From a virus, in the IMG/VR virus record IMGVR_UViG_3300011115_000708, positions 1-64,000 of that record: a stretch of 64,000 bases of DNA; one strand, written 5' to 3'. Position 1 is the first letter of the stretch, and each line of letters starts with the position of its first letter. This document shows positions 4,045-64,000 of this stretch, one piece after another. The position numbers and the translations under genes were made by a program. The notes under the pieces are model-generated. The model was not told the origin of the DNA. It saw nothing but the letters and a program-made list of their open reading frames with translations, and ran no database searches.

Positions 4045-4575
4045 ATGCACGAAAAAAACAAGGCGGGAGGTGGGTCTGCGGCGGCGGCTGGGGCCGTAGT
4101 CAATGGGCCTAGGGGGCGGTTTACGGGCGGGGCTGATCTCACTGACCAGCAAATTGCGTTCATTGAGCTGGTGGCCAATGGGAGGCCTCATCCTGCGGCG
4201 GCGGTGGCCGCTGGATATTCGGATTCGCGCGCTGGTTGGCGCTTACTACGCAATCCAGCCGTGGTCGCCGCCCTCAAGGAGCGGCAAGCGGCCCTCCTGT
4301 CTGGAGACCTGTCGGGCGTGGCCCTGTCTACGCTGCGCGCTGTCATGACTGACGAGACGGCCCCGGCGGCGGCGCGGGTGTCTGCGGCCAAGTGGACACT
4401 GGAGGCGGCTGGGCATGGCCTCGCGGCGGCGCTCGGGTCTGCGCGTCTGGGCCTCGACATTGCAGACAAGCCACTTTCGGCGCTCTCCCTGTCCGAGCTG
4501 GAGGCCATGGCGGAGCAAGCGGCGGCCTCGGTCGAGTCCATCAAGCGTGCGTCTGGCTCGGTGCTGGACGTTTGA
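4045..4575 (+). CDS. terS: Terminase small subunit (module A)
   Basis: LTDQQIAFIE....HPAAAVAAGYS...GWRLLRNPAV HTH typical of TerS. Confidence 0.65.
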   Translation: MHEKNKAGGGSAAAAGAVVNGPRGRFTGGADLTDQQIAFIELVANGRPHPAAAVAAGYSDSRAGWRLLRNPAVVAALKERQAALLSGDLSGVALSTLRAVMTDETAPAAARVSAAKWTLEAAGHGLAAALGSARLGLDIADKPLSALSLSELEAMAEQAAASVESIKRASGSVLDV

Positions 4576-4599
4576 CTACTAATCAAAGGCACATGCCCC

Positions 4600-5250
4600 G
4601 CAATTGCGCGCTAAGGGGTCTGTGGCGCGTCTGTCTGCGTTTTGGGGTATGTGTACCAATTCCAATTTCAAAGAGATTTTAGACTAACAGATCTCTAACA
4701 GATCTCTAACATGTTGAAAGTTGGCACGGAACGTGCGCGAAATGGATGTTTTCCTGTCTGCCTGCGCTCCCCGCGCGCCTGCGGCGCGGTTCCGCCTGCG
4801 GCGGGTTGGATGGTCTGCGCGGTCTGCGCGGTCTGAAAAGTCGGATGGCGGCGGAGCTCGGGGAGGCCGTCCGCCTGTCTGGGCCTGTCTGGCCTGCCTG
4901 TCTGAGCCTGCCTGTCTGAGCAGGCGGAGCCTGCGCCAAGCGGGGCGAAGCCCCGCGAGGGCGCGAAGGCGGCGGAGGCGGAGCGCGCGAAGCCGAGGCG
5001 GAGCCGAGGCGGCGCGAAATGTCGCTCGCTCGCTCCGCTCGCTCGTGGTCAGGCTCGCAGGCTCGCTTCCTGTTTTGACTTGCTCGCCTTGCTCGCTGTG
5101 AATAGCCTCACTGCGTTCGGGTGCTGTTCTGTTCTGCTCACTGCGTTCGCTTGGTTCGCTGCGCTCACTAGCCAGCGAGTGACCCCTGGCGGGGCCCCTC
5201 GGAGGATTTTCAGACTGGTTTCTTGGCCCCACCTAGAAAGTTTGGCTAGT
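4600..5250. repeat. Non-coding repeat/hairpin block; candidate genome terminus/pac or origin
   Basis: CTAACAGATCT tandem (4684-4711), GGTCTGCGC and CCTGTCTG arrays, GCTC repeats, CTCACTGCGTTCG twice (5107, 5137); sharp GC drop after it. Confidence 0.6.
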
Positions 5251-5278
5251 TTGAAAGTTCCCTACTGCATTTTTTTCC

Positions 5279-5306
5279 TTGCATTACAGACAGCAGACAA
5301 TAATCT
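5279..5306 (+). promoter_or_regulatory. Putative promoter of structural genes
   Basis: TTGCAT-N16-TAATCT, spacer begins TACAGACAG. Confidence 0.5.
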
Positions 5307-5312
5307 GCGCCC

Positions 5313-6302
5313 ATGCCAAAGCAAATTTTGAATGCCAATGGAGCAGCCGATGTGATCAATTGGTACGGCGGTGACGGAACCATGGCCGTATCTGGGCAGT
5401 TCAACAGCGGAAGCGTAAAGCTGCAAGTGTCAATCGACAATGGGGATTCCTGGTTTGATGCAAAAGATTCTGGAGGCAATTCATTGCTTTTAAGTGAAAA
5501 TGGTGCTATCAGTTTCTCAGTATCCCCATGTAAATTACGGGCAGTTATGGCGGGAGCTAGTGAAGCTGGAGGAACTCAACAAACCGAAACTCTCACTCTA
5601 GTAGGCCCATCTGCAGTGGCTGCTACTGTAGCGGTGTTGTTCCTGGCGAACCCAGCACTTGGCGACACCATCATGATTAGCAACGGAACGTCGAGAACCT
5701 ATACGTTCACATCAACAAGTGGAACCAACAACATCGTGAGGGGAGCAAACCTATCTGCCACACTCACGGCTATTGCCGCCAAGCTGGTTGCAGACGGATA
5801 CCCGACAGTGGCGAGCCTCGGAACTACCCTGACATTCACTGCGGCGACTGTTGGGACAGTAGGAAATGGTTACAATGTTCAGCTTGTAGGAGCATCACCA
5901 TTCTTCAGCGTAACTGGCAACTACAACTACTCTGGCGGGAAAGACGCTGGAGTCCTAACGGAATCTGGCAACATCACGCTTGAATTTGATTCTAGTTTCT
6001 TTGGATCATTTGTATTGTCTGTGCCAGTTCTAAAAGGAGACATCCGTGCAACCTGGGTTCAGAAGATTGCAAACGCTCTTCAGAACGAAAACCGAATTGG
6101 AAAAAATTACCAGGTCACAAACAACGGATCAATCATAACCATGACCTTCATCGGTTTAGACACATCGAATGACAGCACCTTGCGAGTAAGGGCCCTGAAT
6201 GGATCTCCAAGCCCAGGACTTCCAGCAACATACACGTCAGCAAATGGAACATTCGGTGTGACAACTCTTCCAATCGTAACGGTAGTAATCGAAGAGCGCT
6301 AA
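5313..6302 (+). CDS. Virion structural/decoration protein
   Basis: 329 aa, G/T/S/N-rich beta composition, first gene of the structural block. Confidence 0.6.
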   Translation: MPKQILNANGAADVINWYGGDGTMAVSGQFNSGSVKLQVSIDNGDSWFDAKDSGGNSLLLSENGAISFSVSPCKLRAVMAGASEAGGTQQTETLTLVGPSAVAATVAVLFLANPALGDTIMISNGTSRTYTFTSTSGTNNIVRGANLSATLTAIAAKLVADGYPTVASLGTTLTFTAATVGTVGNGYNVQLVGASPFFSVTGNYNYSGGKDAGVLTESGNITLEFDSSFFGSFVLSVPVLKGDIRATWVQKIANALQNENRIGKNYQVTNNGSIITMTFIGLDTSNDSTLRVRALNGSPSPGLPATYTSANGTFGVTTLPIVTVVIEER

Positions 6303-6320
6303 ACGAATCCAGCACCAAGC

Positions 6321-7139
6321 ATGTCAAACAAAGGAAAGTCTGATAACCTGACTGGACTAGGACTCAACGGTGTTGGGTCTGCGGGAATGGGATATTCTGG
6401 AATGGGATACGGGGGGATTGCTGGAATGCCGACTGGAGGTCTGACAGACAGAATTGTTGCACACTGGACTTTTAATGAGACATCTGGAGTTCGGTATGAT
6501 TCAGTTGGTGTGGCAAACCTCACGCCTCAATCAATCGACTCAACAACAGCAGCTTACATCCAAGGAATAATTGGTGGTGCTGTGAGCCTTAGTAACGAGA
6601 CTTACTTGGTTGGAGAATACCTTCTTCCACTTACGGGGAGAGCCGCATCATTCAGTGTTTGGATAAAGAGAAACATAGGCGAGGAAAATGGCTATGTTGA
6701 CTACTCATTATTCCTCCTCAATGAATACCCATCATTCTACATCACTGATATAGGGAAAGTTGACATTGGAATATCTCCAGGAGGAGGAACTGAAGAATGC
6801 AGGGTGAGAAGTCAGGTTAGCATCGACGACAACCAGTGGCATCATATCGTTGGGACAAGCGATGGCGACCTTCAGAAGATGTACATTGATGGAGTCCTTC
6901 ATAGGACTGGTGGAGATGAATACACTCTCATATCAGACACTCCAGGCGTAGACATGAGTCTGACATTCCCCGATCTTCCATATCGAGATGTTATTATCAA
7001 TGCAATTCTTCCAGTAGAAGACTTTGGAACAGCCCCATGTTCGGTTGACTCTTTCTCAGTCTGGAACAGGGAACTTTCAGCGGAAGAGGTAACTCAACTC
7101 TACAACGGTGGAGATGGGCTTGACTACGTCGATTACTGA
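6321..7139 (+). CDS. LamG/ConA-like domain virion protein
   Basis: IVAHWTFNETSG, SFSVWIK, DDNQWHHIVGT, MYIDGV, VWNRELSAEEVTQLYNGG. Confidence 0.85.
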   Translation: MSNKGKSDNLTGLGLNGVGSAGMGYSGMGYGGIAGMPTGGLTDRIVAHWTFNETSGVRYDSVGVANLTPQSIDSTTAAYIQGIIGGAVSLSNETYLVGEYLLPLTGRAASFSVWIKRNIGEENGYVDYSLFLLNEYPSFYITDIGKVDIGISPGGGTEECRVRSQVSIDDNQWHHIVGTSDGDLQKMYIDGVLHRTGGDEYTLISDTPGVDMSLTFPDLPYRDVIINAILPVEDFGTAPCSVDSFSVWNRELSAEEVTQLYNGGDGLDYVDY

Positions 7140-7164
7140 TAACCAACTTTAAGAAAAAAATCAA

Positions 7165-8622
7165 ATGAGTAGCGTACCACCAGACTATGTGAAGGCAGCG
7201 CCCTTCACCACCCTCGCCCAGCAGCCAATCACCACGGCAGGGCTTCCAGGCACACAGCTCGACAATGAGTTCGCCAACATCGCCATTACGGTGAACAAAA
7301 CAATTGATCGCCTGTCTGAACTACAGCAGGACGACGGCAAGCTCCGATCAAACGTAGTTACCATCAGATCGCTCTCGCCAGAAACAGCCGCAGCGATTGC
7401 AGCCGCAGGTTCCAACATCTACGGTGAGTGGGTGGCTGGCAAGTACTACAAACCAGGCGAAATCATCGTCTACGGATCAGACGGATACGCCTACATGGCC
7501 GCATCAGCTCACACGTCTGGGGTGGATTTCAACGCAGACTTCGCAAACAAGGTTTGGGCGATCTTGGGATGGAGGCCGACCACAAACAACCTGATCGTCA
7601 AGACATTCACTGGTGACGGAACAAGTCTCACTTTCAATCTACTGGTCAACCCAGTCAGCGAAACCAACACCCAGGTATTTGTCAATGGAGTGTACAAATC
7701 CAAGTCTGTCTATAATATCTCTGGAACCAATCTTGTCTTCACGGCAGGAAATGCTCCAGCCAATGCGGCAGCAATCGAAGTGGTGATCGGCGTAGCGGCA
7801 GAACTCATCAACAACATCGTCGACATTCCAGCAAACTCGGTCGGAAACAGTGCGATTATCGACCTAGCAGTTACGGGAGCCAAAATCGCAGACACTACCA
7901 TTACCACTGGAAAGCTCGCAGACCAGGCCGTGACTGCAGCCAAGATCGAAAACAACACCGTAACGTCAGGCAAGATTCAAGACCTTGCGGTAGTCGAGTC
8001 TAAATTGGCAAATGCAGCAGTGACAAACCAGAAGATTGCAACTGGAACCATCATCGAGTCCAACCTTGCAGATGCAGCAGTCGGATCAAACAAGATTGCT
8101 GCTGGAGCCATTGTGAACTCCAAGATGGCCTCCAACTCGGTTGGATCTACCAACTTGATTGATGGATCAGTGACAAGGTCTAAAATGGCAACAGAGGAAG
8201 TAATTCCAGTTGGGATGGTCATGCCTAGAGCTGCATATTCTGCACCAACTGGATGGTTATTGTGTGATGGATCAGCAGTTAGCAGGACGACATACTCAAC
8301 ATTGTTTTCCATTATTGGTGGGCTATATGGTGCTGGAGATGGAAGCACAACATTCAATGTTCCAAATCTTCAAGGAAAATTCCTGCGTGGATACCTATCT
8401 GGAACATCAGCAGCAATTGGGGCTACTCAAGCTGGAAATGTTGGTGACCACACCCATGATTTAAGCATACCATATGTCCAGTCTAGTCTTAGTGTTGGCA
8501 ACACGCTTGCTGGAGTGAGCCAAACAGCAAATCTTTCCAAAGTATTAACTACTGGAAATAGCAGCCAGACTGGAGAAACCCGTCCAATCAATATGGCAAT
8601 GCCATATTACATCAAATACTAA
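7165..8622 (+). CDS. Tail fibre with tail-collar domain
   Basis: 10-residue VT..KIA..A repeats; PTGWLLCDGSAVSRTTYSTLF...GDGSTTFNVPNLQGKFLRG; ETRPINMAMPYYIKY. Confidence 0.9.
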   Translation: MSSVPPDYVKAAPFTTLAQQPITTAGLPGTQLDNEFANIAITVNKTIDRLSELQQDDGKLRSNVVTIRSLSPETAAAIAAAGSNIYGEWVAGKYYKPGEIIVYGSDGYAYMAASAHTSGVDFNADFANKVWAILGWRPTTNNLIVKTFTGDGTSLTFNLLVNPVSETNTQVFVNGVYKSKSVYNISGTNLVFTAGNAPANAAAIEVVIGVAAELINNIVDIPANSVGNSAIIDLAVTGAKIADTTITTGKLADQAVTAAKIENNTVTSGKIQDLAVVESKLANAAVTNQKIATGTIIESNLADAAVGSNKIAAGAIVNSKMASNSVGSTNLIDGSVTRSKMATEEVIPVGMVMPRAAYSAPTGWLLCDGSAVSRTTYSTLFSIIGGLYGAGDGSTTFNVPNLQGKFLRGYLSGTSAAIGATQAGNVGDHTHDLSIPYVQSSLSVGNTLAGVSQTANLSKVLTTGNSSQTGETRPINMAMPYYIKY

Positions 8623-8656
8623 CTCTGCACCTCTTGTGAAACCAGACAAATAATCA

Positions 8657-10246
8657 ATGGCAAAGAAAACAAAAGAGCTGACTCCACTAGAACAAGCGGA
8701 GCTCAGACTCAAGGCCACAAACCGACTCATTGCATCAAAGAAGGCCCAGGACTCGCTGATCGAGTTCGTTCGGCTAATGATGCCAGACCCAGAAGATCCA
8801 GATGACGCATCGAAGTCGCGCTACGAGGTGGCCAAGCACCACCAGGTACTGGCAGCGGCGCTGGAGGAGGTTGAGAAGGGAACGATGCCAAGGCTCATCA
8901 TCACGCTCCCACCGCGTCACGGAAAAAGCCAGATTTCCTCCAAGGCATTCCCAGCCTGGTTCATGGGCCGCGATCCATACAGACAGATGATCGTGGCATC
9001 GTACTCTGCTACCATGGCCGAGGATTTCGGTCGAGAGGTAAGATCCTACATGCAGACAACTGCGTTCCAGCAGGTATTTCCAAACTTCCAGCTCCGCAAA
9101 GGCGGCGCAGCCGCAGACCGAGTTCAGTCTGAGCAAGGTGGTATCGGTGTTTTTGTCGGTGCTGGCGGCGCTCTAACAGGTCGTGGTGCTGACTGCCTCC
9201 TGATCGACGACCCAGTTAAAGACCGCGAGGACGCGAATAGCTCAACCATGCGCGAGAAGTTGTGGGGATGGTTCACTGACGTGGCCATGACCCGTCTGAT
9301 GGGCGGGATGGGGCGCGTGGTGATTATCATGACCCGCTGGCATGAAGACGACCTTGTCGGCAGGCTCACAGATCCAAGCAACACCCACTACAATGCAGAA
9401 GAGGCAAAGCAATGGAAGATCATCTCGTTTCCAGCGTTGGCGGAGAACGACGACATCATGGGTCGTGAGTTGGATGAGCCGCTTTGGCCGACCAGGATCA
9501 CCTACGAGTTCCTCAACTCCCAGCGCCGACTCAATCCAAGAGGATTTTCAGCCCTGTACCAGGGCCGTCCTGCCCCCGAGGAGGGGGACTTCTTCAAAAA
9601 AGACTGGCTCCACACATATCAGCCACTCGACCTCCCGAAGAACCTACGATATTACTGCGCGTCTGACCACGCCGTATCTACTGCCCAAGACCGCGACCCG
9701 ACGGTATTGATGACAGTTGGGGTGGATGAGGATGACAATATCTGGGTGTTGCCAGACGTGTTCTGGCGGCGGGTCGAGACAGACGACGTTGTGGACGGCA
9801 TGATCGACCTCATGGCGAGGCACAAGCCGCTCATCTGGTGGGCGGAACGCGGCCACATCTCCAAGTCCATCGGCCCATTCCTTCGCAAGCGCATGGCCGA
9901 GGAGGGCGTTTACTGCGCCGTTGAGGAGGTCGTACCAGTAAAGGACAAGCAGACGCGTGCACAGGCCATCAGAGGCCGAATGGCAATGGGTAAGGTGAGA
10001 TTCCCAGCATTCGTTCCATGGTGGGAGGCCGCTCGCCAGCAAATGCTCACGTTCCCTGCTGGAAAGCACGACGACTTTGTTGACACCTTAGCCTACATCG
10101 GCCTAGGGCTTGGCCGAATGACATCGGCATCGTCATCCAGGAAAGTGAAACCATCTCCAGCAGTTGGAACTCTGGCCTGGGTGAAGTCTAAATCGGACAG
10201 GGATAAGAAGGATGAGTTTATGAGGAAATCCATTGCAGGATTCTGA
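8657..10246 (+). CDS. terL: Terminase large subunit (module A)
   Basis: PPRHGKS Walker A, TGRGAD.LLIDDPVKD, MTRWHEDDL, FPAGKHDDFVD nuclease motif. Confidence 0.95.
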   Translation: MAKKTKELTPLEQAELRLKATNRLIASKKAQDSLIEFVRLMMPDPEDPDDASKSRYEVAKHHQVLAAALEEVEKGTMPRLIITLPPRHGKSQISSKAFPAWFMGRDPYRQMIVASYSATMAEDFGREVRSYMQTTAFQQVFPNFQLRKGGAAADRVQSEQGGIGVFVGAGGALTGRGADCLLIDDPVKDREDANSSTMREKLWGWFTDVAMTRLMGGMGRVVIIMTRWHEDDLVGRLTDPSNTHYNAEEAKQWKIISFPALAENDDIMGRELDEPLWPTRITYEFLNSQRRLNPRGFSALYQGRPAPEEGDFFKKDWLHTYQPLDLPKNLRYYCASDHAVSTAQDRDPTVLMTVGVDEDDNIWVLPDVFWRRVETDDVVDGMIDLMARHKPLIWWAERGHISKSIGPFLRKRMAEEGVYCAVEEVVPVKDKQTRAQAIRGRMAMGKVRFPAFVPWWEAARQQMLTFPAGKHDDFVDTLAYIGLGLGRMTSASSSRKVKPSPAVGTLAWVKSKSDRDKKDEFMRKSIAGF

Positions 10247-10281
10247 AAAATCAAGTAGAAAAATCGCAGACAACTTTCCTG

Positions 10282-10827
10282 ATGAACATTGCAGACATAT
10301 TCAGACAGATGCAGATAAGGCAGGAAACCACTCCTAGCCCGATATATACGCAGGAAAACTCATTTGGGTATCCAACAATCATGGTTGGTCAGGCAGAACA
10401 ACAAGCTGGAGGCCCTGGATTGATGAATTATTTCAAACAAAATCCACATGTTGCTGGTATGGCGTGGGGTGCTGGATCAAATGGATCTGATCCAAGCGTT
10501 CCAAGATCAGTTGTTGTAAATCCATTCAACAAGAACATGATCTTCCCAGAAAAAAGGCGTGGTCTGCAAATGATCGAGGCTGTCAGACACAAAATGGATG
10601 AAACTAACTACCAGCCAAACTTCCCAGTCTCTCCAGAGATGCAAGCATATCGTGAAGCAACATACGGCGCAAATGAGCCATATCGAACAGACGACACTGC
10701 TTTTAGGAACAGCATGATCTCCAGGGCTATGGTTGGCGATCTGCCGAAAGATCCAAGATACCCAATGCCAGCCGTAGAAAATGCAGCTCGACAATTTGAG
10801 CAAAAATACTTCCCATCACAACCGTAA
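10282..10827 (+). CDS. Hypothetical, possibly virion-associated protein
   Basis: 181-aa ORF between terL and portal; YFKQNPHVAGMA, EAVRHKM. Confidence 0.6.
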   Translation: MNIADIFRQMQIRQETTPSPIYTQENSFGYPTIMVGQAEQQAGGPGLMNYFKQNPHVAGMAWGAGSNGSDPSVPRSVVVNPFNKNMIFPEKRRGLQMIEAVRHKMDETNYQPNFPVSPEMQAYREATYGANEPYRTDDTAFRNSMISRAMVGDLPKDPRYPMPAVENAARQFEQKYFPSQP

Positions 10828-10829
10828 TC

Positions 10830-12971
10830 ATGATAGACGAAACCTCAATGAGTCCAGAAATGGAAGATCCTAGCGCATCACTTGGCCAAATCACTGAAGA
10901 AGTGGTGAAGAGCGGCATGGTTCGTGACAAGCCAGACATTGATAAGAGCCGCGAGGCGCTTGTCCAGAAATGGTCTGATAAAATTGCTGGAGCAAAGTCC
11001 CATTGGAGAGAAGATTTCGACCGAATGAAGGAGAACCAGGCATTTTTGCGTGGCGCTCAGTGGGATGGTGAGGAAGACGATGAAAAGTACCTAGCCAACG
11101 TGATTCAGCGGCACATCAACCAGCGCGTAGCCGCGCTCTACGCCAAGAACCCTAAGGTGGTAACCCGCAGACGGAAGACTCTCGACTTCAAGGAATGGGA
11201 CGGCAGCGTTGACTCGCTCAACACGCTCCAGGCGGCAGTACAGAACTCAATGATGAGCGGAATGCCGATTGATCCGCAGATTACCAACCTCCTCACAGAC
11301 ATCCAAAATGGATGCAATCGCAAGAAGATGATGCAGAAGGTGGCTGAAACGCTTCAGATCGTGTACGACTACACTCTGAACCAGCAGCTTCCTCCATTCA
11401 AGATCCAGATGAAGCAGCTTGTACGCCGTGTCTGCACCACTGGCATCGGCTACGTCAAACTCGGCTACACCAGGATCATGGAGCGCAGCCCAGACGACAC
11501 TGAGCGCATCAATGGAATGTCTGAACAGATTTCCAAACTTGAAGCTCTCATGGCCGACAAGAATGACGGCGAGATTGAGGATGATTCTCACAAGTTGGAA
11601 GAACTTCGCGGCATGCTGGAAGATTTTAAAACTCGGGACAAGGAAATTACCAGAGAGGGAATCACATTCGACTTCCCATCGTCAACCAGTATCATTATCG
11701 ATCCAGCATGCCGCCATCTTCGCACGTTCCTTGGAGCTCGATGGATCGCCGAGGAGTTCATCCTCACGGTTGATGACGTGAAGGAGATCTATGGCGTTGA
11801 CCTAAAGAATGCTGCAGACGTTACTAACTACGAGACTGGAATTCCAAACCTCAAGCAGAAGATCGAATCTCTGAATGGTGGACTTCGCAAGCGCGAGGTT
11901 GAGGGTGTCTGCGTATGGGTGATCTATGACAAGGGATCTGGTCAGACCATGACGATTGCGGATGGCTACAGCGATTTCCTGGTTGCTCCAAAAGAGCCAG
12001 ACGTGTTCATTGAGCGGTTCTGGCCAATCTTCCCGCTCACCTTCAACGAGGCCGAGGACGAGGAGAGCATCTTCCCACGCTCTGACGTGCATCTTCTCAA
12101 GCCACTGCAGATGGAATACAACCGCTGCCGCGAAGGATTGCGCCAGCACCGTATTGCTAGCCGTCCTAAGACGGCAGTGGCTGCAGGGCAACTTGATGAC
12201 GACGATATGGAGAAGCTCCAGTCGCACCCAGCGAATGCCGTGATTGTGCTGAACTCGCTTCCTCCAAATGGAGACGTGAATAAGCTGCTTCAGCCGATCA
12301 ACGGCCCACGCATTGACACGGCACTCTACGACACAGGCCCAATCTTTGAGGATCTTCTCCGCGTAGTCGGCCAGTCTGATGCATCCATCGGAGCTGCCCA
12401 GTCTGGCGTGACAGCAACTGGAGACTCGATTGCCGAACAGAACCGCACGGTAGCCCTAGCATCGAATGCAGACGATCTTGACGACATGCTGGTAGAACTT
12501 TCTCGCGCAGCGGGTCAGATCCTTTTGGCTGAAATGGATCAGCAGACGGTATTTAAGATCGTTGGCCCAGGCGCTGTCTGGCCTGAGTTGAGCAAGAAAG
12601 ACATTGCAGACGAGTTGATACTCGAAATCGAAGCTGGAAGCTCTGGCCGCCCAAACCGCGCAGCGGAAGTCGCCAACATGGAACGTCTAACTCCGCTTCT
12701 GCTCCAGATCCCTGGGGTTCGGCCAGACTGGCTCGTGAAGCAGATCATCAGCAGAATGGATGACCAACTTGATGTGGCTGAAGCATTTGCTGCCAATCTT
12801 CCGTCGATCATCGCCCAGAACGCCATGCAGAAACAGGCGCAAATCATGGGAGCTGGGATGCCACCAGGCCCAGGGTCGGAGGGTGGCGCTGATAACCAGG
12901 AAGCTCCACCTCAAGGCCCTGCTCCGCAGGGCGCTCCAGCTCAAATGCCGCAGACAATGGCGAATGCTTGA
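10830..12971 (+). CDS. Portal protein (podovirus-type)
   Basis: 713 aa, after terL and before scaffold; Q/P-rich C-tail; EIEAGSSGRPN. Confidence 0.85.
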   Translation: MIDETSMSPEMEDPSASLGQITEEVVKSGMVRDKPDIDKSREALVQKWSDKIAGAKSHWREDFDRMKENQAFLRGAQWDGEEDDEKYLANVIQRHINQRVAALYAKNPKVVTRRRKTLDFKEWDGSVDSLNTLQAAVQNSMMSGMPIDPQITNLLTDIQNGCNRKKMMQKVAETLQIVYDYTLNQQLPPFKIQMKQLVRRVCTTGIGYVKLGYTRIMERSPDDTERINGMSEQISKLEALMADKNDGEIEDDSHKLEELRGMLEDFKTRDKEITREGITFDFPSSTSIIIDPACRHLRTFLGARWIAEEFILTVDDVKEIYGVDLKNAADVTNYETGIPNLKQKIESLNGGLRKREVEGVCVWVIYDKGSGQTMTIADGYSDFLVAPKEPDVFIERFWPIFPLTFNEAEDEESIFPRSDVHLLKPLQMEYNRCREGLRQHRIASRPKTAVAAGQLDDDDMEKLQSHPANAVIVLNSLPPNGDVNKLLQPINGPRIDTALYDTGPIFEDLLRVVGQSDASIGAAQSGVTATGDSIAEQNRTVALASNADDLDDMLVELSRAAGQILLAEMDQQTVFKIVGPGAVWPELSKKDIADELILEIEAGSSGRPNRAAEVANMERLTPLLLQIPGVRPDWLVKQIISRMDDQLDVAEAFAANLPSIIAQNAMQKQAQIMGAGMPPGPGSEGGADNQEAPPQGPAPQGAPAQMPQTMANA

Positions 12972-18924: not shown

Positions 18925-18931
18925 TGTCAAG

Positions 18932-44642: not shown

Positions 44643-44733
44643 ATGTCAATGTTTTGGCGATTTGTTTACACGTCTGTAATAACGTATAAAGAATTGGACG
44701 AAAAGTGGGTGTATTCGGGTATTGTATCACACG

Positions 44734-45764: not shown

Positions 45765-45765
45765 A

Positions 45766-46419: not shown

Positions 46420-46428
46420 GAGTGTTAA

Positions 46429-49187: not shown

Positions 49188-49240
49188 GACGCATCGTTAT
49201 CGTAAAGGAACCTAGATTGCAAGGGAGACGAGGATCGTCT

Positions 49241-54755: not shown

Positions 54756-55667
54756 TTAGACTGCTGCAATCGTGAACAATGCGTTCGGAACTCCAGAAGT
54801 GAACGTGCGCTTCGCTGCCATCGTCAACTTGCCAAGGCGATTCTCAGTTGGTGAGAATCTGCGATCGATGCTGATGATTTGCACCGTAGCATCGTAGTTG
54901 AGACCACCAGTTACGCTTGTCGAAACGTCTAGTGTGACCGCTGATAACTCCTCACCGGCATCGAGTGAGTCGAAGTAGGTATCAAAGAACGAAGAACTCA
55001 CACCAATCGGTGTACAACTGATCGTTGATCCGATATTGCCAAGTGCCATCGTGACGGTTCCAATTCCATCGACAACCACTGGAGTCAATGCAAGATCAAA
55101 TGAGATCTCGAATCCATCAGACGAATAGAATGGCGTTCCAGCGGCAAGAGTTGCAGCGTAGGGAGCAGCAATAATCAATGCTGGATCAAATGCTGTTCCA
55201 ATTGAGTTCCCACCAGTACCAACGTAGGTATAGTACGATGTGAGAGCATTTGGGTTAGCCGAATTCTTGACTAGGCCGGTGAACTGAACCGATCCAAGTT
55301 GCGTATTGTTTGCCGTGCAGCGCAGTGTCGGCAGCTTGGTGATCGCGGCGTTGTGGATCGTATAAATTGCATCAACCGAGGTGATTACAAGTGCCTTATC
55401 GCTTGCTCCGTAGATCGATGTGCCAATCGTAGTATTTCCGTATGGGAAGAGAGTTGTGAGTGCTTCGATCTCGCCAACTGGCTCAAACTCGATAACGACC
55501 TGCATATCGGTCTTGGACTTGCCAACCATACCATAAGCATCGACTTCCTTATCGAAGGTCGATTGGTTCATGGTGAGAGTCACTCCACCTTTAGAGTAGA
55601 AGGTTGCAGAATCGTAAACGATCTTGCATGGGCCGCGAACAATGGTAGTGCGATCAAAAGTTGCCAT
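54756..55667 (-). CDS. Major tail tube protein
   Basis: 303 aa, IVRGPCKI...SKGGVTLT; position. Confidence 0.65.
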   Translation of the reverse strand: MATFDRTTIVRGPCKIVYDSATFYSKGGVTLTMNQSTFDKEVDAYGMVGKSKTDMQVVIEFEPVGEIEALTTLFPYGNTTIGTSIYGASDKALVITSVDAIYTIHNAAITKLPTLRCTANNTQLGSVQFTGLVKNSANPNALTSYYTYVGTGGNSIGTAFDPALIIAAPYAATLAAGTPFYSSDGFEISFDLALTPVVVDGIGTVTMALGNIGSTISCTPIGVSSSFFDTYFDSLDAGEELSAVTLDVSTSVTGGLNYDATVQIISIDRRFSPTENRLGKLTMAAKRTFTSGVPNALFTIAAV

Positions 55668-57086: not shown

Positions 57087-58022
57087 TTAGGCGAATGTCT
57101 CGGTATCGGAGATCGAGTCCGTGACGATGATTGGAATTCCGAACGACTCAGTTGCAAGACCATTGAGAAGACCACCGAAGGACTCTTGCTTGGTGTTGGG
57201 AGTAGTGGAACGACTGATTGACAACTGGAATGCCGAGCGACGACTCATCAAGAAGTGAGTAGGCTTGACACCAACTGGGAACTGACGAAGCAGATCGAGC
57301 AACTTGGCATCGGTGCAGGTTGTTCCAGTAGCAGTACCAAGGTTCTTGATACGACCGACAGCATACTTGTTGGCGCACTGAAGACCAACCCATGCGGTAA
57401 GGTCAGCAATGTAAGCAGCGAAGCGTTTGCCATTTCCATCAGATGCGTCACCTTCGCGGAATGCGCTCAGATCGATGGTCGTGTTCTGACCATAGACGTA
57501 TTGCACACCTTGCGAACCAGCAGCGATTGCGTATACAGACGAGCAAGCACTACCGGAACCTTGTGTTCCATCAACAACAACACTACCAAGAGTGCTGACG
57601 AGTGCTTGAAGACCAGGGAATCCTTTTCCGTCTTGTGACGTTCCGTAGATGGTTTGTTGACCGACTTTGTACAGGGCTTCAGCCATGACACCGCGTGCTT
57701 CAAGTGCTTGATAAGCAACTGCACCGTCGATATAGGCGTTTGCAGCAGCCTTATCACACTCAACGCGAGCGGACAGGAGGAATGCTTCGATCGTGCGTTC
57801 GGTGAACTGCGATTTCACTGCGTCCGTTCCTTCGTTCAAGGCGCGGAAAGCAACCGTAGGACGACCGGTACGAGCGGAGATCTTGTAGGATGTACCAGGA
57901 ATGGTACGAGCAGGGATGATCGTAGTTTCTGGTGCAACGGTGGCGACTTCTTCGATCAAGCCCACTGCCATATCAGCAGAGTTGAGCTTGGCGAGGTCTA
58001 ATAGGGTAAGGTTATTAGCCAT
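57087..58022 (-). CDS. Major capsid protein (module B)
   Basis: LTLLDLAK, GLIEEV, FRALNEG, KGFPGL, FGIPIIVTDSI. Confidence 0.85.
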   Translation of the reverse strand: MANNLTLLDLAKLNSADMAVGLIEEVATVAPETTIIPARTIPGTSYKISARTGRPTVAFRALNEGTDAVKSQFTERTIEAFLLSARVECDKAAANAYIDGAVAYQALEARGVMAEALYKVGQQTIYGTSQDGKGFPGLQALVSTLGSVVVDGTQGSGSACSSVYAIAAGSQGVQYVYGQNTTIDLSAFREGDASDGNGKRFAAYIADLTAWVGLQCANKYAVGRIKNLGTATGTTCTDAKLLDLLRQFPVGVKPTHFLMSRRSAFQLSISRSTTPNTKQESFGGLLNGLATESFGIPIIVTDSISDTETFA

Positions 58023-58034: not shown

Positions 58035-59000
58035 TTAGGATTGAGATTGTGCGCGGATCGCTGCTTCAACGCGAGCGAGACCGGTGAGTTGTGGTGCATC
58101 CTCGGTACGACCAGCGAGGATCGTGTTGCCCGAGAGAGCATCTTTGCCTGGAAGTGAAGCAAGCACTTTGATTGCCTTCTCGTCAGCAAGGATCGAGTTA
58201 AGCCAGAATGACTTGGCATCTTCGTCTTGTGGAGCGATGCGACCAGCAAGAATAGCTTCTTCGATCGCGTGTTCAGCAGATGCTGATGCTTTCGACGAGA
58301 GTTGCTTCTTGAGAGCAGCGTTCTCTTCTTCGAGTGCCATGAACTTGTCCTTCAAGGTGGTGTAGTCATTGCTTGCAGCAACTGATGCTGCCTCGACGGT
58401 TTCGGCATTGAGAGCAACTTCGCGGAGATTGGCGAGTGCTGCTTTCGCGGTTTCCAAGGCAGTTTCTGGCGATTCACTCGCTTCGACAAGCCCCAGTTCG
58501 ACTAGGTGGTTGATATCCATAATTAGTTCTGTGTGTGATGCGGCGATGCGCGGGATTTCTTCAAACGCTGGATCATTGACCAACGAGCCAATCTCACCGC
58601 GAGGTGGGAGACCAGATGGAACACCAGTATCTGAAAGCAGAAAAGTCGGGGAGAAGTACGAGTAGTCTTTGCCTTCGATCGCCTTGCGACCGGCTTCCGT
58701 CCATTCGACATCGAGGACAAGACCTACCCCAGACTCGTAGCGAAATTCTTTAGGAATGAATGAAGCTGGGCCTTGCTTGTGATCGAATCCGGCGAATGGA
58801 CGGACATTGGATTCAAACCTCTTGCCAAGATCTTCAGCGAAGGATGCAGCGATGCGCTCATCGATCTGAACGTCAACACGCTTAGGCTTGCCTCCAACAG
58901 TAGCGGAGATTGAGTGATGACCTTCTGGAAGATATACGATAGTTCCTTCTGACGTGGAAATGTCAGATTGGAATGCTGCTTGCGTAATTGATCCACTCAT
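58035..59000 (-). CDS. Mu-like I protease/scaffold
   Basis: GFDH, VEWTEAG..AIEGKDYSYFSPTF, SLVNDPAF; likely start ATG 59000. Confidence 0.85.
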   Translation of the reverse strand: MSGSITQAAFQSDISTSEGTIVYLPEGHHSISATVGGKPKRVDVQIDERIAASFAEDLGKRFESNVRPFAGFDHKQGPASFIPKEFRYESGVGLVLDVEWTEAGRKAIEGKDYSYFSPTFLLSDTGVPSGLPPRGEIGSLVNDPAFEEIPRIAASHTELIMDINHLVELGLVEASESPETALETAKAALANLREVALNAETVEAASVAASNDYTTLKDKFMALEEENAALKKQLSSKASASAEHAIEEAILAGRIAPQDEDAKSFWLNSILADEKAIKVLASLPGKDALSGNTILAGRTEDAPQLTGLARVEAAIRAQSQS

Positions 59001-59043
59001 CGGGTCTTCATTACCACATAACTTGGAAAAACCCAAATGGAAC

Positions 59044-59664
59044 TTACTGAAGATTGGAGAGGATGTGATCAACTGCTGAATCGATGAAGATATTGACATA
59101 GGTTTCTTCTGGTGGGAGTGCTGTGGGCCAAGGCTTTTGATTGACTGACTTCCTTAGCGAGTAGATCGGTGTGATTCCACCTTGCTCATCCTTGCGAGCA
59201 AGAACTCCCTTGGCAGCGAATAGTGGTGCGATCGATCGTGAGTAGTCTTTTGCGAGTACTCCATGAGCAGTTGGATGGATTGGGATCGTGAGGAACTTCT
59301 TGCGCTTTGCAGTGATCACTCCACCAGTCACTTTGTGAGCAAATCCAGTAGTGCTATTCGATATTGTTGCTGTTTGGCTAGTGACTCTTCCTACGTTCCA
59401 TCCAGACTCAACTAGCTTCCACCAGTCTGTCAGCTTGCGTCCTGGTCCATGAGTCGGCAACGATGTGTTGAGCCATGTGGCTCTACCTGCCGTCGTGTAG
59501 TATCCCTTGATCGCGATCAATGCGGACTGCGCTCCAACCTTTAGTGCCTCTTGGCGAACAGTAGGAGACATCGCTTGAATGAGATCTGTCTTGATCTCGT
59601 CAAGTCCAGAGACGTTGATGTTGATACCAACGAACCCTTTACCGATTGTCGAGCTTGTCTGCAT
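59044..59664 (-). CDS. Virion morphogenesis protein (Mu gpG-like)
   Basis: GGVITAKRKKFLTIP, LRKSV; position. Confidence 0.6.
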   Translation of the reverse strand: MQTSSTIGKGFVGININVSGLDEIKTDLIQAMSPTVRQEALKVGAQSALIAIKGYYTTAGRATWLNTSLPTHGPGRKLTDWWKLVESGWNVGRVTSQTATISNSTTGFAHKVTGGVITAKRKKFLTIPIHPTAHGVLAKDYSRSIAPLFAAKGVLARKDEQGGITPIYSLRKSVNQKPWPTALPPEETYVNIFIDSAVDHILSNLQ

Positions 59665-59897
59665 TATTGATCGAGACCGGCGATGATCGAGTTTGCGATT
59701 TCGTTCTCAAGCGCATCAGTCAGTGCCTTGGTATCCAACTGACCGAATAGTTGTGGGATCTTCTCAACCACTGACTCAACCTCCTTGTAGAACGCACCAA
59801 CCGTCATCCGCTCGCTCTTGTCGAGCAAGTCGGCAATGATTGAATCGATTGGATTCAACCATGCACTTGCCACATCGAGTATCTCTTGGTCATTCAT
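59664..59897 (-). CDS. Small helical protein resembling the C-terminus of Mu-type portals
   Basis: WLNPI...LL......F...V...IPQLF.QLD..AL..AL.....A.L. Confidence 0.5.
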   Translation of the reverse strand: MNDQEILDVASAWLNPIDSIIADLLDKSERMTVGAFYKEVESVVEKIPQLFGQLDTKALTDALENEIANSIIAGLDQ

Positions 59898-61575
59898 TGC
59901 GTTGAGCATTTAGGATCTTCTTCGCCCATGCGAATCCTTCATCACCACCCCATCCGTTCCATGCTTGCCATCCTTTGCCCTTCTCGTCCCATGTCGATCC
60001 CTGCTTATCCACTTCGTGACGAGCGAAGAACGATAGCATCCGCTTGACCGTGTCGGTAGATAGCTCGACGCGGTTGGAGATGTCCCTTGCGCGAGCGAGA
60101 CCAACGCCGGTCATACCACGCTCACTCATCGGCTTGATCCTGCGGATCTCAAGTGCCTTGCGGGCGTTCTCAGCCATTGCCTCAGTTGGTTGAAAGCCTG
60201 TGGCAGCACTCTCAACTTGCATTGTCAATGGGTCGATGCCTGGATCTGATGGTGGCAGATCAAGTGGAACTCCAAGATCCGTTGGAGATGGCATCGGTGA
60301 TGCAACTGGTGGAATATCTCCTGTGAACAATGGTTCGCCTGGGATCGGCTCGGGAATACCTAGTTCCTCGTAGACATACTTCAATGTCATCGGCACACCG
60401 ATCTCCTTGTAGATCTTCATCCGTTCTGCGATCGCCTTTTGATCCTTCGCGTGTGGGATCTCCAAGCAGCAGTACGGCATATCCTCGGCAGATACTTCGC
60501 CAAAGTTCATGCGGACAATCGCTGGGATCAACTGGCTGTTGATGATCGATGCAACCCACTCGGATACCATCTTCAAGACATCTGCGCGAATGCCAGCGTG
60601 GACATCACCCAATGCTCTAGATCCTGTATTCGTATTGTCAGTCGTGAGCGTTTGGCCGAGGAGCAAGATGTCGCAAGCCTTGTCAGCAACATCCATCAAG
60701 TGCGACTGCGGCAAGTTCGATGCGTCTCCATTGGCTGCTGAGTGGATCTCGTACTCCACTCCTGGCCCAAACGCTGCCCAACCGCTTGAGCCGATCGACT
60801 CCAGCATCTCCTGTGCCTTGTTGAGTGCGTCCTCAGTGCCGTCGGTCTTCGCGGTACGCGTTGGAATACCGAACAACTGAGCATACTGCATCAACCATCC
60901 GAGACCATAGACTGCTCCGAGCCAATGCTTCGTGAGCGTCCGTAAGTTTGCAGCATGGATCGGGTGTGTGCCACCTTGACTCCAGACACCGATCAAGAAG
61001 CGATCAAGTGGAAAGTCCTCAAGCGTTGAGTAGTTGACACCGAGTGGAGCGATCATCAGACGATCGATCTCCATGTTCATCGATGGGTAGGCCAAGTATT
61101 TCGCTGGAACCGGCGCATAGCATCGAGGTGACACAATCCCATTCTCGATCTTCCAGATGATCTCAAGCACCGAGATGCCCTTGGCATATGCGTCGATCAG
61201 TGCCTTGACCATGCCCGAGTTGTCGAGTTCCCAGTATCCTGGGCGCGGCGCGAATGACTCCATCGCACGTTCGACTGTCTCGTAGATCAAGAGTGCTTGT
61301 GGAGTTGCCTCCTCCATGCCTTCGCGGATGCCTGGCTTGATCTCGATCTCAAGTCGTGCAACAGCACCGGAAATCTCATTGAGTGCCTTGCGAAGTCTAG
61401 GCCAAGTATCTAGCATCAAGCGGAATAGACGGTCTTGGTCTTCCAGTTTGCCTGTGCGAACATTACGCAGAATTGCGCGGATCTGATCTGGCGTTACGTT
61501 CGCCAAATCATAGTCGTTTGTCCTATAGTTTACTGGAATAGGCCAAACTACACCCTTACGCTCATCCTTGGTCAT
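59890..61575 (-). CDS. Portal protein (Mu gp29/DUF935-like) with extra C-terminal domain
   Basis: DAYAKGISVLEI.W, YAQLFGIP, LLGQTLTT, GSRALGDVH, INSQLI. Confidence 0.9.
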   Translation of the reverse strand: MTKDERKGVVWPIPVNYRTNDYDLANVTPDQIRAILRNVRTGKLEDQDRLFRLMLDTWPRLRKALNEISGAVARLEIEIKPGIREGMEEATPQALLIYETVERAMESFAPRPGYWELDNSGMVKALIDAYAKGISVLEIIWKIENGIVSPRCYAPVPAKYLAYPSMNMEIDRLMIAPLGVNYSTLEDFPLDRFLIGVWSQGGTHPIHAANLRTLTKHWLGAVYGLGWLMQYAQLFGIPTRTAKTDGTEDALNKAQEMLESIGSSGWAAFGPGVEYEIHSAANGDASNLPQSHLMDVADKACDILLLGQTLTTDNTNTGSRALGDVHAGIRADVLKMVSEWVASIINSQLIPAIVRMNFGEVSAEDMPYCCLEIPHAKDQKAIAERMKIYKEIGVPMTLKYVYEELGIPEPIPGEPLFTGDIPPVASPMPSPTDLGVPLDLPPSDPGIDPLTMQVESAATGFQPTEAMAENARKALEIRRIKPMSERGMTGVGLARARDISNRVELSTDTVKRMLSFFARHEVDKQGSTWDEKGKGWQAWNGWGGDEGFAWAKKILNAQRNE

Positions 61576-61620
61576 TGGAACGCTTTACACTAATTGATTG
61601 AAGTTGTCACGCATAACGCT

Positions 61621-62985
61621 TCAGAACTTGTTGAACCCACCGACGATCGGTGCTGTGAACGGAGTGCGACCAACCCTAGTGATAGCTTGGCCGGTGATAG
61701 CTCCGTTCATCTCTGGGCCACAGACGATGCACCCGAGAAGTGCGTCAGCACGGTCGGGTGACTTGAGTCCCATGATGCGCATCGTCTCCTTCGCTTGTAC
61801 ACGCAACTTGCCATTCTCACTCCACTCGGTCTTCCGCGTGGTCAACTGGTTGAATGTGATCGGATCAAGGTTGCCGAGGTTCACTCGTCCTCGCTCGATC
61901 TCACGACATCCAACGTGCCAGACCTCACCAATCAAGTTCGCGTACTCGTTCGGTTCACGACTTCTCGATCCTCCATGAAACCGATTGATCCTCCACCCTT
62001 GCTCTGCCATCGCATCTATCATCACTGAGCCGAGACCATCGGCATCACCCCAGATCATCGATGGTTTCAGTTGTTCCTTCTCGAATAGCTTGATGAACTG
62101 ACGAACGCCCTGCATCGTGTCTTTCTCGACCCATGTGCGCGAGATCCGAGCCGAGTTACCTCTTCGGACTGCAAGCACGTTCTCGTCTCGACCGGCAGCG
62201 AAGTCACAGAACGCAACGATGTGACCATCGAGCGGTTCGGGTTGCTCGTCGATCGCCTTGAGAAGCCTATCACTTGATATCAGAAGTCGGTCGATGTCCT
62301 CCGCAAACTCAGCTAAGTGCATCGACCTGTAGATCGGATGGTTCTCACCATAGATCGACAAGTCTCGATCACGTTTCTCCTGCGGAATGTGAGCGCACTG
62401 GTCAGACCGAACCTTCACCCGCTTCCAGTGCGATGCTTCTTCAAACTGCGACCTATAGAACCAACCAACTGGTGCGCCTGGACTCGATGTCGCTAGGATG
62501 CGCGAGCAAGTACAGCGATCGACCGCGGTCTTGATGCTGTCTGGGATTGTCTTCGCCTCGTCAAGAACGTACAGCACCGGCGAGTCGGCAGTTGCGTGGT
62601 AGCCTTCCGCTCGTCCCGCGTTATCAGTCGAGAACCCGCTTGCCCATCCACCTTGCGGAGTCTTGATCTCGGCTTGGTTCCAGATCCACCCGTCGAACAT
62701 CGGGTTGCCTCGGTACAATTCCATCGCGGGCCAAAGTTGCAGCAATACCTGCCTCCACGACCCAGACGTGATGACAACCCTCCCTTTCGGGTAGTTCGCA
62801 AGGAACCACAAGATCGTCGGTGCAATGATCGCCGCAGTCTTCCCCGATCCGTTCGCAGCAACCACAGATGTCCGAACGTCGTCGTTGATATAACGGAACG
62901 CTTGCATCTGCCAATCGTATGGCTTTAGACCGAGTACGCCAAACGCGAATGGGCCTAGCTCAATAGTCGGTTTCGGTAGTTGCAT
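61621..62985 (-). CDS. terL: Terminase large subunit (module B)
   Basis: PYDWQ, AANGSGKT, VLDEAK, CDFAAGRD, KSPDRADA. Confidence 0.92.
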   Translation of the reverse strand: MQLPKPTIELGPFAFGVLGLKPYDWQMQAFRYINDDVRTSVVAANGSGKTAAIIAPTILWFLANYPKGRVVITSGSWRQVLLQLWPAMELYRGNPMFDGWIWNQAEIKTPQGGWASGFSTDNAGRAEGYHATADSPVLYVLDEAKTIPDSIKTAVDRCTCSRILATSSPGAPVGWFYRSQFEEASHWKRVKVRSDQCAHIPQEKRDRDLSIYGENHPIYRSMHLAEFAEDIDRLLISSDRLLKAIDEQPEPLDGHIVAFCDFAAGRDENVLAVRRGNSARISRTWVEKDTMQGVRQFIKLFEKEQLKPSMIWGDADGLGSVMIDAMAEQGWRINRFHGGSRSREPNEYANLIGEVWHVGCREIERGRVNLGNLDPITFNQLTTRKTEWSENGKLRVQAKETMRIMGLKSPDRADALLGCIVCGPEMNGAITGQAITRVGRTPFTAPIVGGFNKF

Positions 62986-63451
62986 CCCAACGCTTTCTGA
63001 AGTCTTCCAACTGCTTGTTCTCGATCTGGACGTTCTCCATCGACGACGTGTTCACGTTCACCATGATGTCTGGGTTCTTGCCAACCTCAGACCAACGCGC
63101 ACGACACTTCATCCAGAAGATACACGCTGGCAATGCCGTGCGCTTGTCGTCTCCCATCGCAATGTCGTAAAGTCGTTGTGCAACCGAGGTCGTCGCCTTC
63201 GTCTGTCCCAGAAGGAACTCTTCCTTGTAGTGACGCTCGATCGTGTTGTCGTCGATGCCGATCTGCGCTGCCATCATCCGCAGTGGGATGCCGAGACCTG
63301 CCATCTTCTCGACCAACGCACTGTTGATCTCGGTCTTGACGTGCGGCTTGAACTTACCGTCTGGAAGTCGTTCAATCTTCTTCCCATCAACCTCGGTAGC
63401 TTCTACCTCGATGATGTGTGGCTCTGGATCTAGCTTTTTTCTCTTACTCAT
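62960..63451 (-). CDS. terS: Terminase small subunit (module B)
   Basis: VEKMAGLG...MAAQIGIDD.TI..HY.EE...G, ACIFWMKCRARW. Confidence 0.75.
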   Translation of the reverse strand: MSKRKKLDPEPHIIEVEATEVDGKKIERLPDGKFKPHVKTEINSALVEKMAGLGIPLRMMAAQIGIDDNTIERHYKEEFLLGQTKATTSVAQRLYDIAMGDDKRTALPACIFWMKCRARWSEVGKNPDIMVNVNTSSMENVQIENKQLEDFRKRWDATTETDY

Positions 63452-63454
63452 AGA

Positions 63455-64000
63455 TTACCTTCCCATCTTGCTACGCAGAAAGTCAAGCGACACCGATCCG
63501 TCGGCGTTCAAGACCTGCTGACCAAACCGATCAACGAGACGCTGACGTGCCTTGATCGCAATGTCGTCTGGTACGTCCTTCATCTCTGCCTTGACTCCGC
63601 TCATCATCGCTTGCGCTGGCTTTACCCCGAACATCGATACGTTCGGTGGGTTGATCCGCTGACCATCTACAATCACACCAAGACGGATTGCCTCGCGTCT
63701 TGAGATAAATTCTTGCACCATGTACGAGTTGAACCCATACGGCCCCCAAGGGACAACGAACCCACCAATATCAGCACCATTCTGGAATAACCAGAAGTTG
63801 AAGTCGTCCAACCGACGAACCTCACCCTCAGCCGCAACGTGCCTCGGACGCTTGATGATCGCACCTGGCCGCCGAACGAACCGAGCCGCAGGGAAAGCAT
63901 TGAGCAGCGTAGGGTCTCCCACGATCCTCTGCCAGTTAGCGAACGTCTGCGCTTGCTCGATGTTCGTGTTGAAGATTAGCTTGAGCCGTGATGCACCGGC
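63455..64000 (-). CDS. Mu gpF-like head morphogenesis protein (5' beyond window)
   Basis: Frame open to the window edge: SRLKLIFNTN, RPRH, PWGPYGFNS. Confidence 0.7.
   Translation of the reverse strand, partial: AGASRLKLIFNTNIEQAQTFANWQRIVGDPTLLNAFPAARFVRRPGAIIKRPRHVAAEGEVRRLDDFNFWLFQNGADIGGFVVPWGPYGFNSYMVQEFISRREAIRLGVIVDGQRINPPNVSMFGVKPAQAMMSGVKAEMKDVPDDIAIKARQRLVDRFGQQVLNADGSVSLDFLRSKMGR

Follow-up and report, generated by a model that had tools for sequence, protein, structure and literature searches.

Does an 81,028-bp viral contig that carries two unrelated sets of virion genes represent one phage or two? The window analyzed here, bases 1–64000 of the contig, holds both sets, and PHROG and Pfam searches confirmed them at about the places where the original prediction, made from the letters of the window, had put them. 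Two TerS, TerL, portal, capsid and endolysin genes were all found, with module A on the plus strand and module B on the minus strand. The contig is very probably an assembly chimera of two separate co-occurring phages, called alpha and beta, that were joined through a shared 2-kb cassette, R. Alpha and beta each have their own packaging, head, tail, lysis and replication genes.

PHROG matches and composition define a GC-rich segment of alpha (679–5300, ~0.6 GC). It encodes a phrog_1909 protein (1626–2513, −), a CobS/MoxR-like AAA ATPase (2482–3765, −) and, as the first gene of module A, a TerS-like protein (4033–4575, +; PHROG 641/51, E 1e-7). The podovirus-like virion module A extends from 5313 to 29033 on the plus strand by PHROG and Pfam. 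It contains a tail fiber (7165–8622), TerL (8657–10246; phrog_38, E 1e-110), the portal (10830–12971), the major head protein, or capsid (14080–15198), a short tail fiber (18899–19363) and an endolysin (28482–29033), all plus-strand genes with PHROG matches. The plus-strand protein at 15713–16393 belongs to the SU10-type adaptor family (PF24175) with 52 bits against a Pfam cut-off of 27. Module A has this adaptor family in common with SU10-like podoviruses, and other module A proteins, namely those of 603, 552 and 2,139 residues (the last at 21857–28276, +), have no family match. A PDB sequence search with the module A capsid and the 603-residue protein gave no matches. The original prediction had assigned podovirus architecture, with no tape measure, to module A; PHROG and Pfam gave no tape-measure or tube match between 15.2 and 28.3 kb, and the predicted tail-tubular and ejection labels found no family matches. 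The alpha replication/early module follows on the plus strand (29273–38135). PHROG matches there are to a Sak4-like protein (29905–30801), a helicase (31903–33573; phrog_16), a Cas4-type exonuclease (33940–34689), a primase/helicase-like protein (34686–36965) and a MazG-like protein (37492–38136), all on the plus strand.

Beta has an early arm on the plus strand (40164–43758) with PHROG matches to an HNH/Lar-like protein (40543–41124), a C5 DNA methyltransferase (41121–42142) and an SNF2-type helicase (42253–43758; phrog_62); this enzyme and the alpha helicase account for the two helicases that had been predicted. The late arm is the long-tailed virion module B, which was delineated with PHROG, Pfam, PDB and Atlas searches, occupies 43942–64000 of the minus strand in the window and extends past it to 64411. 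All its genes lie on the minus strand. PHROG matches locate an endolysin (43942–44415), a fiber (46429–48852), TerL (61621–62985) and TerS (62960–63451). The portal (59890–61575) matches Portal_Mu with an E value of 5e-64, the Mu-like protease I is found by Pfam at 58035–59099, and the capsid protein (57087–58022) belongs to the GP7 capsid family in Pfam and matches 3j40 and 3j4u in a PDB sequence search. The portal and protease fit the Mu-type head of the original prediction; its tail tube (54756–55667) corresponds to a structure-based fold lead in the Atlas (Phage_tube_2 clusters, TM 0.72), and its tape measure (52209–53960) to an Atlas lead and a weak match to PHROG 1538 (E 3e-8, ~100 residues). 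A PDB sequence search with the tube protein gave no matches, and no sheath family matched among the scanned module B open reading frames. A Mu-type portal and protease together with a tail tube indicate that beta is probably siphovirus-like. Module B has a capsid like those of epsilon15 and BPP-1 (3j40, 3j4u), but the tail-tube fold lead is unlike these short-tailed phages. Portal_Mu and the Mu-like protease I are shared with Mu, but a Mu transposase was not found. The beta portal gave partial C-terminal matches to genome contigs of a Betaproteobacteria MAG and a Chitinophagaceae MAG that are too weak to name a host. The two predicted holin/endolysin sets were recovered in their endolysins; in a crude scan of hydropathy, no small open reading frame next to either endolysin stood out as a holin.

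Self-blastn of the whole contig gave the order X1–A–R–B–R–C–X2, in which X1 and X2 are the contig ends and not the sequencing runs named below. R is a direct repeat, and inspection of mismatch positions shows that 38136–40163 and 73646–75673 are exactly identical over 2,028 bp; the proteins encoded by the two copies are 100% identical pairwise. The first copy, R1 (38136–40163, +), is a shared cassette of small uncharacterized genes that begins at an ATG and is followed by ~140 bp of diverged homology, to 40301. The second copy lies outside the window and hence was invisible to the original prediction, which had held a chimera through shared small genes to be the most economical explanation. 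The analysis supports that choice and identifies the shared genes as the exact repeat. The predicted join region of 37–42 kb contains the repeat, which is the join; the convergence of strands at 43.8 kb is inside beta. The R copies precisely bracket beta as a self-contained 35,510-bp unit (40164–73645 plus R, in circular order). The contig minus beta closes on itself as the 44,840-bp podovirus-like genome of alpha (679–38135, R and 75674–81028), with closure at the overlap of the contig ends. This overlap spans ~690 bp (1–678 and 80343–81028) at 92.5% identity with indels by self-blastn. The left end, X1 (1–678, +), holds the C-terminal part of a phrog_503 gene (PHROG 503 match at 2–340, +; E 4.5e-21), the same family is matched at 80058–80690, and X1 marks the point where the alpha genome wraps round. 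The two genomes add up to 80,350 bp (44,840 + 35,510), which is the whole contig minus X1. This repeat layout was observed directly. No exact terminal repeats, direct (10–599 bp) or inverted, were found on the contig, a tRNA search gave no match, and neither did an Rfam search of 37900–40500.

Two circles that share R would give a figure-of-eight assembly graph, and the contig would be one walk through it. The assembler would have entered R from alpha, switched from alpha to beta at R1, circled beta once, crossed R again and resumed alpha, and the walk would have ended on reaching a stretch of the alpha circle that varies between strains (X, 92% identity). We infer this exact behavior of the assembler and, likewise, the absence of any molecule that joins alpha to beta. 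Chimeric virome contigs arise through regions common to co-existing phages (Roux et al. 2017, PMC5610896; Phables, PMC10104058). The present case resembles these contigs (PMC5610896, PMC10104058) in that two distinct genomes from one sample are joined via a highly similar stretch, and their depths differ and add up there. It is unlike a simple end-to-end fusion because the walk goes round a whole circular genome, which doubles the shared stretch and makes one phage look nested inside the other.

Read depth was taken as k-mer depth from Logan contigs, which are k-mer assemblies. Run X1, labeled viral metagenome, contains 100% of the sampled words and is the probable source virome, not an independent sample. 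A coverage step at 38–40.5 kb had been set in advance as the deciding test, and it was found. In run X1 the alpha flank (30001–38197) has a depth of 25.8x and lies on one 29,023-bp Logan contig, the R interior (38393–40163) has 93.9x, and beta to the right of R (41125–50000) has 66.6x on a 10,866-bp Logan contig. Alpha and beta thus differ 2.6-fold at the R borders, and the depth within R is approximately the sum of 25.8 and 66.6. This additive step is a direct observation. Beta to the left of R has a depth of 64.3x on a 5,883-bp Logan contig whose loose end is 73615–73644 of the contig, and because this Logan contig enters R from the identical sequence, beta closes as its own circle; closure of each half as a circle had been named beforehand as a mark of a chimera. 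The Logan contigs break at the R borders and give the flanks of R separately, not their pairing on single molecules. Inside R a two-allele bubble (38314–38393) has depths of 73.6x and 22.8x in run X1, and at least 1,771 bp of R form one unbranched Logan contig. The allele depths track those of beta and alpha, to which the alleles would respectively belong, and the major allele is present in both R copies of the contig.

Three runs from two other studies (X2, X3 and X4) cover 38005–50000 and have near-zero depth over 30001–38004, so beta and R were observed in samples from which the neighboring 8 kb of alpha are missing. In run X4, the sequence preceding 38136 ends in the last 10 letters of the beta flank. 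The C5 DNA methyltransferase is missing from the beta variants of runs X2 and X4, where 1,014 bp are cleanly skipped between 41119/41120 and 42134/42135. Three features that mark a chimera were present: near-identical sequence at the join, depth that differs on its two sides and is additive within it, and R and beta occurring independently in X2, X3 and X4.

One crossover between two circles within a shared, identical tract of 2 kb would produce precisely this layout as well. A genuine cointegrate, formed by Campbell-type homologous recombination at R during co-infection, would place a real alpha::beta molecule beside an excess of free beta, and the depths permit up to 25.8x of such a molecule plus ~41x of free beta. 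The virome contains both phages, and the unbranched stretch of R provides a substrate for recombination. Against this, at 66.6x versus 25.8x, at least ~60% of the beta copies would lack an alpha partner in a 1:1 pairing, and beta and R occur in the three other runs where 30001–38004 has near-zero depth. A molecule of 80 kb would also exceed heads built for ~45 kb or ~35 kb, as judged from the genome sizes and the viral-metagenome label, and the contig has the major allele of the bubble twice, as a walk through a collapsed repeat would. A cointegrate is therefore an improbable explanation of the contig, and it is equally doubtful that a real, low-abundance alpha::beta molecule arose by recombination at R in one co-infected host. 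If it did, a short-tailed and a long-tailed phage would have been caught exchanging whole genome arms.

The compositional split between the genomes was likewise observed directly. CCGG occurs 0 or 1 times in every part of alpha, including 75674–81028, against ~177 expected, and module A has none in 23.8 kb against ~89 expected. Beta has 73 CCGG sites, 33 of them in the late arm. GGCC is depleted only in beta, with 31 sites in the late arm against ~78 expected. Tetranucleotide use at the right contig end correlates with alpha at r 0.77–0.86 versus r 0.62–0.63 with beta. The CCGG patterns are opposite in the two phages, with near-total avoidance in alpha and many sites and a carried C5 methyltransferase in beta.

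Could both modules nevertheless belong to a single phage genome of 81 kb from which two virion types are made? Both look intact on one deposited contig. In a single genome, depth is not expected to change 2.6-fold right at the edges of the repeat and to be additive within it, and beta would not be found in runs with near-zero depth on 30001–38004. Near-total CCGG avoidance in alpha and its absence in beta would be pointless in a long-standing genome, and every essential function is doubled with unrelated genes. The ends are also not those of a single genome, in which a terminal repeat or circular overlap would be identical; an overlap at 92.5% with indels fits neither a genuine terminal repeat nor clean circular closure. 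Finally, the relatives have one module each. The idea of one genome building two virion types, which the original prediction had listed, is not supported by the depth step and the runs with beta, and it is extremely unlikely. The two virion modules in one genome are most likely an artifact and not a new kind of phage.

Database searches place the two genomes among separate relatives. Megablast of both halves against a phage record collection gave no match; in IMG/VR, the proposed search for relatives of each half found relatives with one module each. The contig L002 is colinear with the alpha replication/early module at 85% nucleotide identity, and in it module A, replication genes and R-like genes adjoin one another. 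The 45.4-kb contig L128 lacks a 35-kb insert and carries, in this order, the primase, the phrog_503 gene, TerS, TerL-A and portal-A; none of the remaining phrog_503 relatives has further genes in common with the contig. L002 and L128 are alpha-type relatives that carry no beta; no near-identical alpha free of beta was found. The beta early arm is colinear with L004 and L005 at 80–89% nucleotide identity, and in many IMG/VR contigs the genes at 71–73 kb lie directly upstream of the helicase at 42–43.7 kb, in agreement with the order of the beta circle. No independent contig was found with the exact join of the alpha left flank, R and right-hand part, an exact 36-mer of the alpha-specific junction from R into the right-hand part had no match in IMG/VR, and an exact 55-mer of the right end of R had none in JGI metagenome contigs. 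The R gene at 39838–40215 has only distant relatives in IMG/VR (36–44% identity), the R gene at 39020–39403 had none in a protein search of metagenome contigs, and the protein at 76305–76961 had none in IMG/VR.

The first 5.3 kb are GC-rich (~0.6) and compositionally odd, as might be seen if the contig were a neighboring or nested pair of prophages in a bacterial chromosome. However, this part encodes phage-family proteins, and the same GC-rich block lies upstream of TerS/TerL-A in the phage relatives L033, L034 and L007. When ~90 open reading frames, among them nearly all those of at least 200 residues, were compared with PHROGs, none matched an integrase, a transposase or a bacterial housekeeping gene. 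The two ends of the contig also overlap, and the run with the most complete word match is labeled viral metagenome. A prophage pair has hardly any probability.

Tailed phages are modular mosaics, and the lambdoid short-tailed P22 and long-tailed lambda have early-gene modules in common. Alpha and beta resemble this pair in their unrelated virion modules and shared early/replication genes, with one exchange boundary at a gene start (the R ATG). Mosaicism accounts for R in both genomes but not for both virion modules on one molecule. Taken as one virus, the 81-kb record would inflate genome-size estimates, merge populations, and confuse taxonomy and host prediction; it should be split into genomes of 44.8 kb and 35.5 kb. 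In some IMG/VR relatives the alpha-type virion module is accompanied by replication genes of the beta type, and among relatives the same replication module occurs with either virion module. That two phages of one virome have unrelated virions and yet are identical over at least 1.77 kb of early-gene DNA is ordinary but clean biology.

When essentially all of the larger ORFs were scanned against PHROG and Pfam, two unrelated virion gene sets were identified on the contig, as the original prediction had claimed. Module A is on the plus strand and encodes a TerS-like protein (4033-4575), a tail fibre (7165-8622), TerL (8657-10246; phrog_38, E 1e-110), a portal (10830-12971), a major head protein (14080-15198), an SU10-type adaptor (15713-16393; PF24175, above cut-off), a short fibre (18899-19363), a 2,139-aa protein without a family match (21857-28276) and an endolysin (28482-29033). 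It is followed by a replication block with a Sak4-like protein, a Cas4-type exonuclease, a MazG-like protein, a phrog_16 helicase (31903-33573) and a primase/helicase-like protein (34686-36965). Module B is on the minus strand and encodes TerS (62960-63451), TerL (61621-62985), a Mu-type portal (59890-61575; PF06074, E 5e-64), a Mu-like protease I (58035-59099), a GP7-family capsid protein with PDB sequence matches to epsilon15 gp7 (3j40) and BPP-1 (3j4u) (57087-58022), a putative tail tube whose Atlas model resembles tail-tube clusters (TM 0.72; 54756-55667), a tape-measure-like protein with a weak match (52209-53960), a fibre (46429-48852) and an endolysin (43942-44415). No confirmation was obtained for the holins or for the "tail-tubular/ejection" names. 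"Podovirus" for module A and "siphovirus" for module B are reasonable, partly tested labels. The gene content of the modules is real, but their union in one 81-kb genome is most likely not.

The window covers positions 1-64000 of one 81,028-bp contig, and self-comparison of the whole contig detected a direct repeat (38132-40301 = 73642-75802) whose second copy is outside the window. The two copies are identical letter for letter over 2,028 bp (38136-40163; the repeat R), starting exactly at an ATG, and the ~140 bp that follow are still homologous but diverged. R encodes six or seven small proteins, each 100% identical to its counterpart in the other copy. Contig bases 1-678 match the last 686 with 92.5% identity in direct orientation, and a phrog_503 protein is encoded at both ends. 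The layout of the contig is thus X1–A–R–B–R–C–X2, where X1 and X2 are the similar ends, and it resolves into two circles with all bases accounted for: a 44,840-bp circle (alpha: 679-38135 + R + 75674-81028) carrying module A with its own replication genes, and a 35,510-bp circle (beta: 40164-73645 + R). Each circle is plausibly a complete phage. There are no exact terminal repeats on the contig, direct or inverted, megablast against the phage record collection returned no close relative, and ARAGORN detected no tRNA. Short motifs recur within R (38291-38315 / 39664-39687 and 38387-38416 / 39891-39921), and segment 38609-38683 has neither a tRNA by ARAGORN nor an Rfam match at E up to 1. In both genomes R is followed, after a few hundred bases, by an HNH/Lar-like zinc-finger gene (40543-41124 and 76305-76961; 54% aa identity), and one could speculate that endonuclease-driven gene conversion underlies the uniformity of the adjacent 2 kb.

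Read depth was assessed by placing on 30001-50000 the Logan contigs of sequencing run X1, a 2018 viral metagenome that is a possible source of the record and contains every word sampled from 35001-45000 (100%). The alpha flank is a single 29,023-bp Logan contig at 25.8x that stops 60 bases inside R, the R interior (38393-40163) is a single 1,771-bp contig at 93.9x, and beta from 41125 rightward is a 10,866-bp contig at 66.6x. The original prediction had named a coverage step as the test against a single genome, and the step is present: 25.8x to 93.9x to 66.6x. A 5,883-bp contig at 64.3x joins R at 38136 from non-alpha sequence, and its loose end is identical to positions 73615-73644, the other end of beta. 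Both beta flanks thus have 64-67x, and the 93.9x seen in R compares with 92.4x expected as the sum of the flanks. Within R, a two-allele bubble at 38314-38393 has depths of 73.6x and 22.8x, which track those of beta and alpha and suggest that the alleles belong to them in that order. The deposited contig carries the major allele in both copies of R, which looks like the expected outcome of a walk over a collapsed repeat.

The record is best handled as a pair of phages, one podovirus-like (44.8 kb) and one long-tailed with a Mu-type portal (35.5 kb), that were most likely stitched together via the shared 2-kb cassette. Virome assembly is documented to yield chimeric contigs where co-existing viruses have similar regions (PMC5610896, PMC10104058), which also weighs against a real alpha::beta cointegrate. 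The depths would be the same with a cointegrate at up to 25.8x alongside free beta, and Logan k-mer contigs break at R, so flank linkage on single molecules is not readable from them. Most beta is demonstrably free, an 80-kb molecule from a virion preparation would be too large for heads that suit genomes of 35-45 kb, and the shared major allele resembles graph collapse; we consider the cointegrate quite improbable.

The second alternative, one long-standing 81-kb genome with both virion modules, is most likely incorrect; the depth step and additive depth in R argue against it, as does restriction-site composition, because purging CCGG from only half of a molecule brings no gain to parts that have long been joined. 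Segment-by-segment counts over the whole contig gave no CCGG in 5301-38135 or 75674-81028 and one in 1-1620 plus 3351-5300, where ~177 are expected in alpha. The exception is a 1.7-kb island (1621-3350) with 25 sites. Beta (40164-73645) has 73 CCGG sites and carries a C5 methyltransferase, and GGCC has the opposite pattern, being depleted in beta only. The signature changes at the borders of R, and the far right contig end is alpha-like. Tetranucleotide use agrees weakly with the split. Region 1-5300 has an unusual composition, with a GC of ~0.6, a GC skew of +0.17 to +0.26 and a tetranucleotide r of only 0.4 against the rest of alpha; it nevertheless has a conserved place upstream of TerS and avoids CCGG except in the island, which has 74% nt identity to relative L007 from IMG/VR.

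Three runs from two other studies, X2 (seawater) and X3 and X4 (riverine), cover 38005-50000 and have essentially zero depth over 30001-38004. In X4 the sequence ahead of 38136 finishes in TCCTTGGACT, the final ten letters of the beta 73.6-kb flank. R and beta thus occur there without the adjoining 8 kb of alpha. Runs X2 and X4 have another sequence at 38314-38393. The beta C5 methyltransferase gene (41120-42134) is polymorphic for presence, with a clean 1,014-bp skip in X2 and X4, and most of it is also absent from relative L004.

IMG/VR relatives have the gene orders of the separate circles. A 45.4-kb contig (L128) is arranged as primase, phrog_503 gene, TerS, fibre, TerL-A (64% aa) and portal-A, with ~1.8 kb between the primase and the phrog_503 gene, which is the alpha circle order without the 35-kb insert. 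The beta circle order is seen in many beta-type contigs (L014, L021, L024, L028, L029), in which the 71-73 kb genes precede the helicase by 1-2 kb. The 24.5-38.2 kb stretch has a colinear counterpart in L002 (85% nt identity), which continues into R-like genes. None of the relatives compared has both virion modules, and exact-match and protein searches of IMG/VR and JGI metagenome contigs for the R junction gave nothing useful. Three contigs from different metagenomes (L033, L034, L007), compared with 1163-12971, 42253-43758 and contig positions 68129-73179, have early genes of the beta type, helicase (67% aa identity) and primase (47%) connected directly to an alpha-type set made up of a CobS-like pair, TerS, TerL-A (81%) and portal-A (65%). 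This arrangement indicates that, among these phages, one replication module is combined with either type of virion module. The relatives place alpha and beta in one mosaic gene pool, which is why they share R. The result is useful mainly for curation, and the pair neatly illustrates how phages whose virions are unrelated have come to share a module very recently.

The early arm of beta runs on the plus strand from 70.4-73.6 kb through R, the HNH gene and the C5 methyltransferase to an SNF2-type helicase ending at 43758, and the late arm runs on the minus strand, beginning with the primase (68129-70366) and TerS and reaching the endolysin at 43942. The strand convergence at 43.8 kb is therefore within beta, and it is genuine: L004, L005 and L031, from different metagenomes, have the same helicase-to-endolysin arrangement at 72-89% nt identity. 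The late arm (43942-64000) and primase (to 70366) are inverted in beta, as in these close relatives, compared with the more distant L011, L020 and L021, where the helicase adjoins a co-directional primase.
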